Positions 30,231 through 33,026 of a DNA stretch of 64,000 nt are shown in pieces (within the stretch, counting starts at the first letter, position 1; each line of letters begins with the position of its first letter). The stretch is from Octopus sinensis (lineage: Eukaryota), in NCBI RefSeq assembly GCF_006345805.1, contig NC_042999.1, positions 94,674,001 to 94,738,000 of the forward strand, in the 5' to 3' direction. Both the position numbers and the translations under genes were made by a program. Below the pieces are notes generated by a model. It saw only the letters and a list, made by a program, of their open reading frames with translations, was not told the DNA's origin and did not search any database.

Positions 30231-30231
<1 letters not shown>

Positions 30232-30684
30232 GTTCCGTTTTCAGCAGAGAAAGACGTGATTGCCTTTGCTCTGTGAAAAAGTTTGCATAGAACGGCGAAA
30301 TAACCCACTGTAGTTGCAAAACGTAAAACTCTAAGTCATAGAGATCACACTACAACACTTTGGTTTAAAAATATTTAAAAAAATATATATATAAATATAT
30401 ACATAACACAGTAATTTTCATTATCGCCGAAACGCACATGGTGCAAAAATAACTGAATCAAGTTATCTCCTGCAAGAAAGAAAAAAGAAGCATCTCTCTG
30501 AAAAAAATCCCGTAAACCAAAAGAAAAAATAATCCAGACCACATTGTGGATTAAGTATCAATTCATCTATTTCATATTTTATTTATTATTCTATTTTATC
30601 TTCACTTAGGCCCACATCTTAGTTAAAGTTGCGATCGTCATTTTGTTTGTTTACATTTTCAATAACTGTTCTCGATATAATAAT

Positions 30685-32106
30685 TTTCCAGATACTCTAT
30701 CTTCTAATTAGCCTAAGATTAAATTAAATAACGTTTATATTGATACGTCAAATAGCCTTAGGATTAATTAAATCGTTTAATATTGTTAATATTGTTAATA
30801 ATTATTGTTAATTAGCCTTAGATTAATTTTATTAAATAACGTTTATATTGATACCGTCAAATTAGCCTTCGGATTAAATTAAATAACGTTTAATATTGTT
30901 TAATATTGTTAATAATTATTGTTAATTAGCCTAAGATTAAATTAAATAACGTTTAATATTGTTTTAATATTGTTAATAATTTTTGATACCGTCAAATTAG
31001 CCTTAGGATTAAATTAAATAACGTTTAATATTGTTTAATATTGTTAATAATTATTGTTAATTAGCCTTAAGATTAAATTAAATAACGTTTAATTGATACC
31101 GTCAAATTACCTTCGGATAAATTAAATTAAATTAAATTAATAACGTTAATATTGTTTAATATTGTTAATAATTATTGTTAATTAGCCTAAGATTAAATTA
31201 AATAACGTTTAATATTGTTTAATATTGTTAATAATTTTTCAGATACTCTATCTTCTAATAGCCCTAAGATTAAATTAAATAACGTTTAATATTAAAAACG
31301 TCTAATTAGCCTTAGGATTAAATTAAAACGTTAATATTGTGTAATAATTATTGTTAATTAGCCTTAGGATTAAATTAAATAACGTTTTAACATTGTTTAA
31401 TATTGTTAATAATTACTGTTAATTAGCCTTAAGATTAAATTAAATAACGTTTATATTGTTTAATATTGTTAATAATTCTTCAGATACTCTATCTTCTAAT
31501 TAGCCTTAAGATTAAATTAAATAACGTTTAATATTACCCACACTCTAATATAATTAAACATTGCTAATATATTTTCAGATACAACTCTATCTCCTGATTA
31601 GCTTTAAGATTAATAACGTTTTTATCCACACTCTATTAATATAATATTGCTAATATATTTTTTTTTCAGATACTCTATCTTCTAATTAGCCTTAAGATTA
31701 AATTAAATAACGTTAATATTAATAACGTCTAATTAGCCTTAAGATTAAATTAAATAACGGTTAATATTGCTTAATATTGTATATATAATTTTTCAGATAC
31801 TCTGTCTTCTAATTAGCCTTAAGATTAAATTAAATAACGTTTAATATTACCCACACTCTAATATAATATTAATATTGCTAATATATTTTCAGATACTCTA
31901 TCTCCTAATTAGCCTTAAGATTAAACAACGTTTTTATCCACACTCTAATATAATATTAATATTGCTAATACATTTTCAGATACTCTATCCCCCCCCCTAA
32001 TTAGCCTTAAGATTAAATAACGTTTTTACCCAAATAACGTTTTTACACAAACTTTAATATTGTTAATATTTCTTTTTCAAGTACTCTATCTTCTAATTAG
32101 CCTTAA
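30685..32106 (+). repeat. AT-rich tandem array, ~21 copies of core aattagccttaagattaaattaaataacgttt with variable spacers
   Basis: Cores counted by eye from 30706 to 32095; alternating spacers aatattgttaataatt, cagatactctatcttct and gataccgtca. Confidence 0.93.
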
Positions 32107-32167
32107 TATCTTCCTGTCTTCTCTCGAACATAATTAGATAGATAAACGGATAGACGGATTATCCAGC

Positions 32168-32950
32168 ATGTCCAGAGCATGGAGACGTGACGAGCTGGAT
32201 TTATTCGTACGAGCATGGGAGTGCGCCGGCGGAGATAGCCCTAGGGAGGTGATTGCGGCTGCGCTGAAGAGCAGAGGCTACAAGAGGACAGCGGCTCAGA
32301 TGGAGCGAAAGAGACAGGAATTCGTGCGCTCATATGCGCTTGTACGGTCGCACATTGGCGCACTTGATGCCATCTTTGAGAACGAGCGGGGCAAAGATGG
32401 CAAGAATGGAGACAACGAAAGAAGTCACCCCCACCTGGTGGACGCCCGGGAGGAGGTTTTGAATGAGAAACCTGCCCGGGAAGTGAACCCAGGTGCAAGT
32501 TCTCAACCGGCAGCAAGGGCCATGGAGACGGAGAACCGGTGAAGAGGTAGAGGGAGGAAGAAGAACTAAAAGAAGGACTGAAGAGCTAAAGGAAAAGAAA
32601 AAGCTCAAGCAGGACAAAGAGTGAAACAACCAGAAATAGAAGTGGAACCGCAAAGGATGGAACCAAACAGCGCACAACGTGGTGTGTATGTTCTACCTGA
32701 GAGGTTCCTGCTGGAATGGAAAGGAAGGTGCAGGCTGCCGCTTTGCACATCGGGGACCCTGCCACAGAGACACGAGGCAGATGGACAAACCATCAACACA
32801 AAGAAAAGGGATGGACCATGCACCACCGCCCCAAAACGGAGGTACGCAGATGTTGTGCGCGCCACAAACAGCCAACATGATGTTGTCGAAAGAGCAGCTG
32901 CTGAGCAACAATCTTTTTGTGCATGGCACAAAAGATTGTACAGCAGCTGA
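32168..32950 (+). pseudogene. LINE ORF1 (frameshifted): Myb/SANT trihelix-like domain, charged linker, CCCH zinc finger
   Basis: WRRDELDLFVRAW..IAAALKSRGYKRTAAQMERKRQEFVRSY; CMFYLRGSCWNGKEGAGCRFAH (C-x7-C-x8-C-x3-H, ~32685-32750); RYADVV motif. Confidence 0.75.
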
Positions 32951-33026
32951 CCTGGCTTCATCAAACCCAAGCCCGCAGGTGGGACTACCCACTATATACC
33001 AGACCACCACAGCAAACAGACACAGG

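Follow-up and report, generated by a model that had tools for sequence, protein, structure and literature searches.

Background

LINE ORF1 proteins, generally regarded as RNA chaperones, are grouped according to whether they contain RRM, CCHC, PHD, Tnp22 or esterase modules. The Myb-like accessory proteins of Harbinger transposons carry trihelix, or Myb_DNA-bind_4, domains, and rodent L1 elements possess monomer promoters, whose variable tandem units are located at the extreme 5' end and are replaced between subfamilies. The known ORF1 types I to IV, as given in Table 1 of PMC4120745, are RRM plus CCHC, Tnp22, PHD and esterase. CR1-clade LINEs of the Jockey superfamily include the octopus RT clusters O.sinensis_104/135/140/179_LINE of PMC10294476, the accessible part of which classifies the reverse transcriptase (RT) and mentions ORF1 once. 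R2 is also a LINE with a Myb-like domain, which binds target DNA according to the available sections of PMC12203849; R2 has one ORF, in which an N-terminus with zinc finger and Myb domain is fused to the RT, as well as an RLE nuclease and a single rDNA site. A preference for simple-repeat targets is found in TRAS1, SART1 and R1Bm, where it is set mainly by the endonuclease. Indeed, the portions of PMC1919474 and PMC7265360 that are available report that endonuclease swaps move the target specificity of TRAS1 and SART1, which are APE-type LINEs. A precedent for ORF1-mediated localisation is provided by HeT-A, the ORF1 protein of which localises to telomeres (PMC4700185, accessible part).

Here, we describe a full-length LINE at positions 30232-36115 of a stretch of 64,000 nucleotides from Octopus sinensis (contig NC_042999.1, 94,674,001 to 94,738,000, forward strand; hereafter the window), which is flanked by (TA)n tracts on both sides. 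Like the CR1-clade LINEs, it encodes an ORF2 with APE endonuclease and RT, ends in a microsatellite tail and is frequently truncated at the 5' end; its ORF1, however, is unlike the RRM/CCHC, PHD, Tnp22 and esterase types laid out in the accessible part of PMC4120745. In contrast to R2, the predicted Myb/SANT-like domain heads a separate ORF1 beside a CCCH finger, and the element is of the APE type with a loose preference for (TA)n DNA. Its targets are dispersed (TA)n tracts, unlike those of TRAS1, SART1 and R1Bm, and the preference, though strong, falls short of being absolute. A three-helix core followed by a fourth helix is shared by the predicted domain and the trihelix proteins GT-1 and Zeste; the domain of the element, however, scores below the Pfam cut-off and has the third aromatic residue replaced. 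Unlike in the Harbinger accessory proteins, it resides in a retrotransposon ORF1 and not beside a DDE transposase.

This ORF1 type is absent from the published ORF1 classifications examined, in line with the initial annotation of the locus. In the parts of the sources that are accessible, Myb, SANT and CCCH are mentioned neither in PMC4120745, which covers the ORF1 types of 21 CR1, L2 and Jockey subgroups, nor in PMC13343379; Myb and CCCH have no mention in PMC5203782, which describes an algal ORF1 of the HTH_1 kind, and Myb and zinc have none in PMC11203168. Full-text literature searches brought up no LINE ORF1 combining Myb and CCCH, the matches obtained for ORF1 with Myb or SANT concerning human L1; Repbase, Dfam and most subscription papers, which were beyond reach, may note the type. 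Within the known CR1 clade, an ORF1 with a Myb/SANT-like domain and a CCCH finger is a type that has apparently not been described so far. We have high confidence in the descriptive part of this account. A conserved Myb/SANT-like plus CCCH type adds a category to the LINE ORF1 classes, and the close association of LINEs with TA microsatellites in this genome may in part be due to it. Should the domain read DNA, target choice in an APE-type LINE, usually credited to the endonuclease, would also lie within the reach of an ORF1 protein. As a very young family with open frames and many subfamilies that differ in their 5' UTRs, it allows direct tests of both ideas.

Anatomy, copy number and clade of the element

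The (TA)n tract on the 5' side, which represents target DNA, extends from 29341 to 30231, and the tract on the 3' side from 36115 to 37334 (both from TRF). ORF1 (32168-33075, plus strand, as all features of the element) is overlapped at its end by ORF2 (33027-36024), which encodes an AP-type endonuclease and an RT and is followed by the 3' UTR and an (AATC)n tail (36025-36115). Both ORFs are frameshifted in the window copy, which differs from the family by 31 indels, 27 of them single-base and 22 in homopolymer runs. Five of its ORF1 indels are absent from the contigs of all four public runs and are therefore probably assembly errors or private changes. Furthermore, the first ~3 nt found in most sister copies are missing from its 5' end.

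A search of the animal's own genome (2.7 Gb) with the ORF1 start yielded 441 candidate copies, of which the 40 that were scored are all 99-100% identical; between the ATG and the tail, 39 copies show an average pairwise substitution distance of 0.85%. ORF1 is open in 12 of 30 sister copies, where it encodes 302-304 amino acids, and ORF2 forms a single open frame in copy L043, the product of which matches the Pfam families RVT_1 (E=3.5e-30) and Exo_endo_phos_2 (E=5.3e-12). The 5' start is missing in 16 of 40 ORF1-bearing copies. By eye, the RT of the element agrees almost letter for letter with published octopus RT rows, which are classed as Jockey/CR1 in the accessible part of PMC10294476 (Table S7, Data S2); the placement in CR1 rests on these rows, as our own RT tree had no reference clades. 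The window element is a full-length copy of a young, abundant CR1-clade LINE family. Proto2 was considered as the clade and dropped, since its RT row looks unlike the RT of the element. The labels of the subfamilies (A, A', B, C, D, E) and of family H used below are our own.

Several further loci were noted during the searches. Metagenome contigs contain four distant endonuclease loci, with no ORF1 match at them. In the own genome, several ORF1 matches lie ~2.1 kb apart at C11045:40905-46069, and ORF1 starts without the first 13 codons are clustered at C6:12.67-12.86 Mb; both clusters are possibly tandem ORF1-only units or segmental duplications. One lipin gene model (P0010) ends in a piece of the ORF1 linker of the element, which reflects either exon capture or an annotation artefact.

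The ORF1 protein and its predicted Myb/SANT-like domain

The trihelix-like pattern with which ORF1 was said to open is present from 32168 onwards (W5, W17, IAAALKSRGYKRTAAQMERK and RSY), and the assignment of the N-terminus to the Myb/SANT-like domains is supported, at moderate strength, by several lines of evidence. Pfam Myb_DNA-bind_4 (PF13837) matches ORF1 with E=0.0018 and 19.1 bits versus a curated cut-off of 27. AlphaFold2 predicts four helices for the N-domain (ORF1 residues 1-76, 32168-32395; 38 sequences) at residues 7-20, 25-35, 42-60 and 63-76 with a pLDDT of 87.5, and only two of the five models exceed a pLDDT of 80. The top VIA-align matches among 48,161 chains are the SANT domain of DNAJC2 (Z 7.2), TEAD4 (Z 7.1) and the Myb domain of RAD (Z 7.0; rmsd 2.5 over 58 residues), and further matches include LUX (Z 6.5), GT-1 (Z 6.4) and Zeste (Z 5.7). 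Myb, SANT and TEA domains thus dominate the top structural matches, none of which reaches Z 8, and values below 8 can reflect a common helical arrangement. At E<=0.001, the N-domain model obtained no match with Foldseek and none among viral folds, and PDB sequences searched with the domain profile gave 0 matches. Atlas neighbours of the corresponding domain of a homologue (P0005, residues 1-85) include Myb/SANT clusters at scores of 0.82-0.86. Given the Pfam score below the cut-off, the Z scores below 8 and the lack of a Foldseek match, a three-helix HTH of the Myb/SANT-like fold is likely, but not certain. The top Atlas neighbour of P0005 residues 1-85 is an unnamed cluster of 178 proteins of 91 amino acids (score 0.91), in which Cnidaria is the commonest phylum (phylum known for 10); as a lead, the N-domain may also occur in cnidarian elements.

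Myb domains have a helix-3 Trp as their third conserved aromatic residue, and SANT-type domains often bind proteins rather than DNA. In the N-domain, W5 and W17 of the aromatic core are kept, the helix-3 position is occupied by R or K, and an invariant acidic residue, E46, lies within helix 3. This divergence from DNA-binding Myb domains and the SANT domain of DNAJC2 as best structural match would fit a Myb/SANT-like fold that serves RNA or protein binding in the ORF1 particle, for instance in packaging or in contacts with ORF2 or chromatin proteins, and leaves the TA preference to the endonuclease alone. ORF1 proteins are generally RNA-binding chaperones, as stated in the accessible part of PMC4700185, and target specificity moves with the endonuclease in the TRAS1/SART1 swaps. 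However, many of the top fold matches are DNA-bound transcription-factor domains, a likely RNA-binding module is already supplied by the CCCH finger, and helix 3 is basic, with strong conservation of R40, Q44, R47 and K48. A function in RNA or protein binding is, in our view, only a little less likely than DNA tethering by the domain, the reading that we tentatively follow below.

The remainder of ORF1 contains the previously noted CCCH finger C-x7-C-x8-C-x3-H (32685-32750), which is found in a different frame from the ORF1 start because the window copy is frameshifted. Most homologues that span the finger region have kept this pattern. The intact ORF1 of 303 amino acids scores 16.8 bits on Pfam zf-CCCH (cut-off 20.5), and a Pfam scan of it at E<=10 revealed no RRM, CCHC, PHD, Tnp22 or esterase domain. 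Among 1.84 billion representatives, 31 homologues of ORF1 were obtained at E<=0.001; 20 of these were looked up, six of which are named, all from Octopus, and 14 nameless. In an alignment of homologues and genomic copies, variable charged linkers alternate with three conserved parts, which are residues 1-72, the finger and a block at the C-terminus. The C-terminal block, RxYADVV...AAxEQxxFLxMAQxIVxQLTW (approximately 32836-32960), is likely an amphipathic helix. No longer homologue was found among 7993 scored sequences, and an Atlas search with a near full-length ORF1 homologue gave CCCH clusters only (best score 0.80). A nameless protein, P0027, has CCCH fingers in tandem together with a C-terminal motif of similar kind, but no Myb match; it may be a related ORF1, without the Myb-like domain, of another animal.

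Age and conservation of the N-domain

The own genome harbours a ladder of subfamilies, A, A', B, C, D and E, whose N-domains are 44-90% identical to that of the window copy. Ratios of dN/dS for the N-domain are 0.15-0.36 in six of 12 pairs, dS being saturated in the other six; these values are below those of the linker, which yields 0.29-0.74 in nine pairs and 1.8 in the closest pair. The N-domain is under purifying selection. Helix 3 has a net charge of +5 or +6 in 11 of 16 copies and of +1 to +3 in the other five, among them all four copies of subfamily D. When copy L019 is compared with L133, L129 and L144, the N-domain exceeds the linker and CCCH regions in dS by a factor of 2-8, a hint of 5' module swaps between subfamilies.

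The domain is also present in family H, the ORF2 of which is mostly 31-40% identical to that of the window family (RT 46-47%) and which has a different tail. ORF1 of family H has the same layout, with the N-domain, a linker of low complexity, two fingers of the CCCH type and, at the C-terminus, a similar motif. On Myb_DNA-bind_4, the N-domains of five copies score 22.7-27.6 bits, so that one of five passes the cut-off of 27, and comparison with the profile of the window family by hhalign gives a probability of 87% (E=3.9e-6); the structure model of the family H domain is poor (six near-identical rows, pTM 0.37). The initial annotation proposed that ORF1 of the window family had captured the domain, which does not agree with its occurrence in families with such distant ORF2 proteins. 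Acquisition of the domain is old and predates the window family.

The internal tandem array

Between the 5' head and ORF1, the youngest subfamilies, and only these, possess an internal tandem array in the 5' UTR, which in the window copy consists of 19-20 full units and one partial unit (30708-32106). Depending on the pattern used, 19-20 core starts are found from 30708 to about 32025, and the partial unit ends ~61 bp before the ATG, which matches the earlier count of ~21 units ending ~60 bp from the ATG. Between the 19 starts found with one of the patterns, the units measure 43-122 bp, and they belong to several types rather than one monomer. All 15 strict matches to the array core in the window lie inside the array, with 0 on the minus strand. 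Myb-type sites follow the consensus YAACKG. The reading of TAACG as a Myb core does not hold, as TAACG is followed by T, and only one of the 43 matches to YAACKG in the window lies in the array.

The array is present in every full-length copy of subfamily A (24 of 24), with a variable number of 12-21 units (median 15), a largely conserved order of unit types and a start 447-492 bp from the 5' end. It is also found in three A'-type loci, with 8, 14 and 21 cores. Of the B, C, D and H copies, 16 with an intact 5' start were compared, loci without a recognisable start being left out; the array core is absent from 15 of these and occurs once in the remaining one, and TAACG occurs 0-1 times in each. 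A segment that B and D possess in single copy aligns with the array unit; it reads TAACC, TAACT or TAATT and not TAACG. Other subfamilies have amplified unrelated CT-rich or GATA-rich units in the same part of the UTR, and the UTR of family H, of ~0.5 kb, has no array. The array is a recent amplification and younger than the N-domain. It may represent the latest of several subfamily-specific internal duplications in the 5' UTR, which would be neutral or tune the binding of host factors.

In the model of the initial annotation, the domain binds the TAACG units of its own array and thereby autoregulates the element. The presence of the array in all full-length young copies, the variation in unit number and the conserved order would be compatible with such a function, and the array-bearing lineage shows a few differences in helix 3 (A42, R49, V53 and partly M45). 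However, there are not many such differences, those at R49 and V53 are conservative, and Q44, E46, R47, E51, F52, S55, Y56, L58 and H62 are the same in three copies with and 18 copies without the array. What speaks most against self-binding is that older relatives, including a distant family, lack the array and yet have the domain, in which helix 3 is almost unaltered; in addition, the ancestral single-copy segment lacks TAACG, and the units amplified by other subfamilies are unrelated. We therefore regard binding of the domain to the array as very improbable. The array is striking but subfamily-specific, and it is probably not the target of the domain. Since the domain is much older than the array, landing on TA DNA is the likelier role.

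The array units were also considered as splice acceptors; this was rejected, as the window copy contains three acceptor-like sites versus 2.3 in shuffles, and the contigs of eight runs contain no GT..AG joint over the array.

The 5' head and the putative promoter

Copy comparison delimits a unique 5' head (30232-30707) with a fixed 5' end, which likely contains an internal promoter. Its DPE-like motif, AGACGTGA, is located at 30252-30259 and fits the consensus R-G-W-C-G-T-K-Y. In 23 copies of A and in B, C, D and E, the distance of AGACGTG, or GGACGT in a few cases, to the 5' TA junction is mostly 20-23 nt, and a DPE-like motif occurs at about the same spacing in four copies of family H. A second motif, TTTGTTTACA at 30646-30655, which we take to be forkhead-like, is kept across subfamilies. 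Subfamilies C and D begin with ACTTCCGG, presumably an ETS-like site, and E begins with AAGATGGCG, presumably YY1-like, ~21 nt before the DPE-like motif (L123, L128, L130, L143, L131). In Doc, F, G, I and jockey elements, the DPE R-G-W-C-G-T-K-Y lies at +29 to +36, according to the accessible part of PMC1636488. As the motif in the head fits this consensus, we infer a DPE-type promoter in the unique head.

Variable tandem units in the 5' UTR are a feature that the element shares with rodent L1. The analogy to the monomer promoters of the latter, which the initial annotation had drawn, nevertheless fails, because the array is internal and the DPE-like motif is located in the unique head: the array does end close before the ATG, as described, but begins behind the DPE-bearing head, ~475 bp inside the element, and not at its 5' end. 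A transcription start inside the array, suggested by three presumed-RNA runs without the head, was dropped, since all four other runs cover part of the head when a cleaner copy is used as query; none of the runs that contain the element is recorded as RNA.

The head itself might be the DNA that is recognised, with the domain binding a site in it and regulating transcription or aiding 5'-end joining. The head is homologous across subfamilies A to D, with the DPE-like motif in the same place even in family H, and the raised dS of the N-domain hints at a joint transfer of 5' UTR and N-domain between subfamilies. However, the conserved head motifs resemble core-promoter sites (DPE) and factor sites of the host, the latter presumably for ETS, YY1 and forkhead proteins, and, by eye, the heads of A-E and H have only the DPE-like word in common. 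Recognition of the own head is, in our view, distinctly unlikely, and binding to (TA)n DNA remains the preferred reading.

Preference for (TA)n DNA and a tentative mechanism

Copies of the element are closely associated with TA repeats. A TA run is present at the 5' junction of 21 of 24 full-length A copies and at the 3' junction of 28 of 39 A copies, whereas 6-8.5% of random window positions lie at a TA run. In the sister set, 22 of 34 3' junctions and 22 of 37 truncated 5' ends are located at TA runs, as are 13 of 20 3' junctions of family H. Family H had been considered as a Myb-less control but was found to carry the domain; therefore, a canonical CR1 was used as second control, the ORF1 of which was judged by eye to be of the coiled-coil plus RRM type without a Myb domain. 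In this control, TA runs occur at 5 of 30 3' junctions and 2 of 19 5' junctions. Thus, 65-72% of 3' flanks lie on (TA)n in the Myb-ORF1 families examined versus 17% in the Myb-less CR1 (Fisher p of 7e-6 to 8e-4), for top-scoring matches rather than random draws and with two related lineages set against one control. The insertion preference for TA tracts raised in the initial annotation is therefore strong, and the element family belongs to the repeat-targeting LINEs without being strictly site-specific. As subfamilies with different tails all show the preference, tail annealing is not its obvious cause. No target-site duplication is readable inside the TA tracts. As ORF1 and the endonuclease are inherited together, the TA preference is not assignable to ORF1, and the endonuclease could account for it just as well.

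A possible sequence of events would start with transcription from the DPE-type promoter in the head. The CCCH finger and the basic linker of ORF1p would then package the RNA, and the C-terminal block would multimerise ORF1p. The Myb/SANT-like heads may hold the particle on (TA)n DNA, on which the endonuclease likely picks the cut. That the N-domain tethers the RNA-protein particle of the element to (TA)n DNA in this way is a tentative proposal, to which we give somewhat less than an even chance; against it stands that the TA preference rests on two related lineages and one control family. The wider claim that, in a whole CR1 sub-clade, the Myb/SANT head of ORF1p reads (TA)n and sets targets besides the ORF2 endonuclease is unlikely. 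If true, each family would have its copies, numbering hundreds to thousands, parked at scattered safe sites by a swappable, ORF1-encoded DNA-targeting module.

Other elements in the window

A 5'-truncated copy of a sister subfamily, which has 2851 candidates in the own genome, is located at 28520-29340 on the minus strand, back to back with the full-length element over the same TA tract. Older, decayed LINE copies related to the ORF2 of the element (30-69% identity by piece) are found at 21392-22250 (plus strand) and 23421-24754 (minus strand). The control family is that of a young canonical CR1, a 3' fragment of which, tailed by (AACT)n, is located at 46309-46890 (plus strand); the pieces flanking this fragment look like ends of RLE-type (Dong/R4-like) LINEs. 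A frame at 42379-42780 (minus strand) presumably represents the end of an RLE endonuclease, and a frame at 50036-50497 (plus strand) resembles what we take to be the N-terminus of a mariner transposase.
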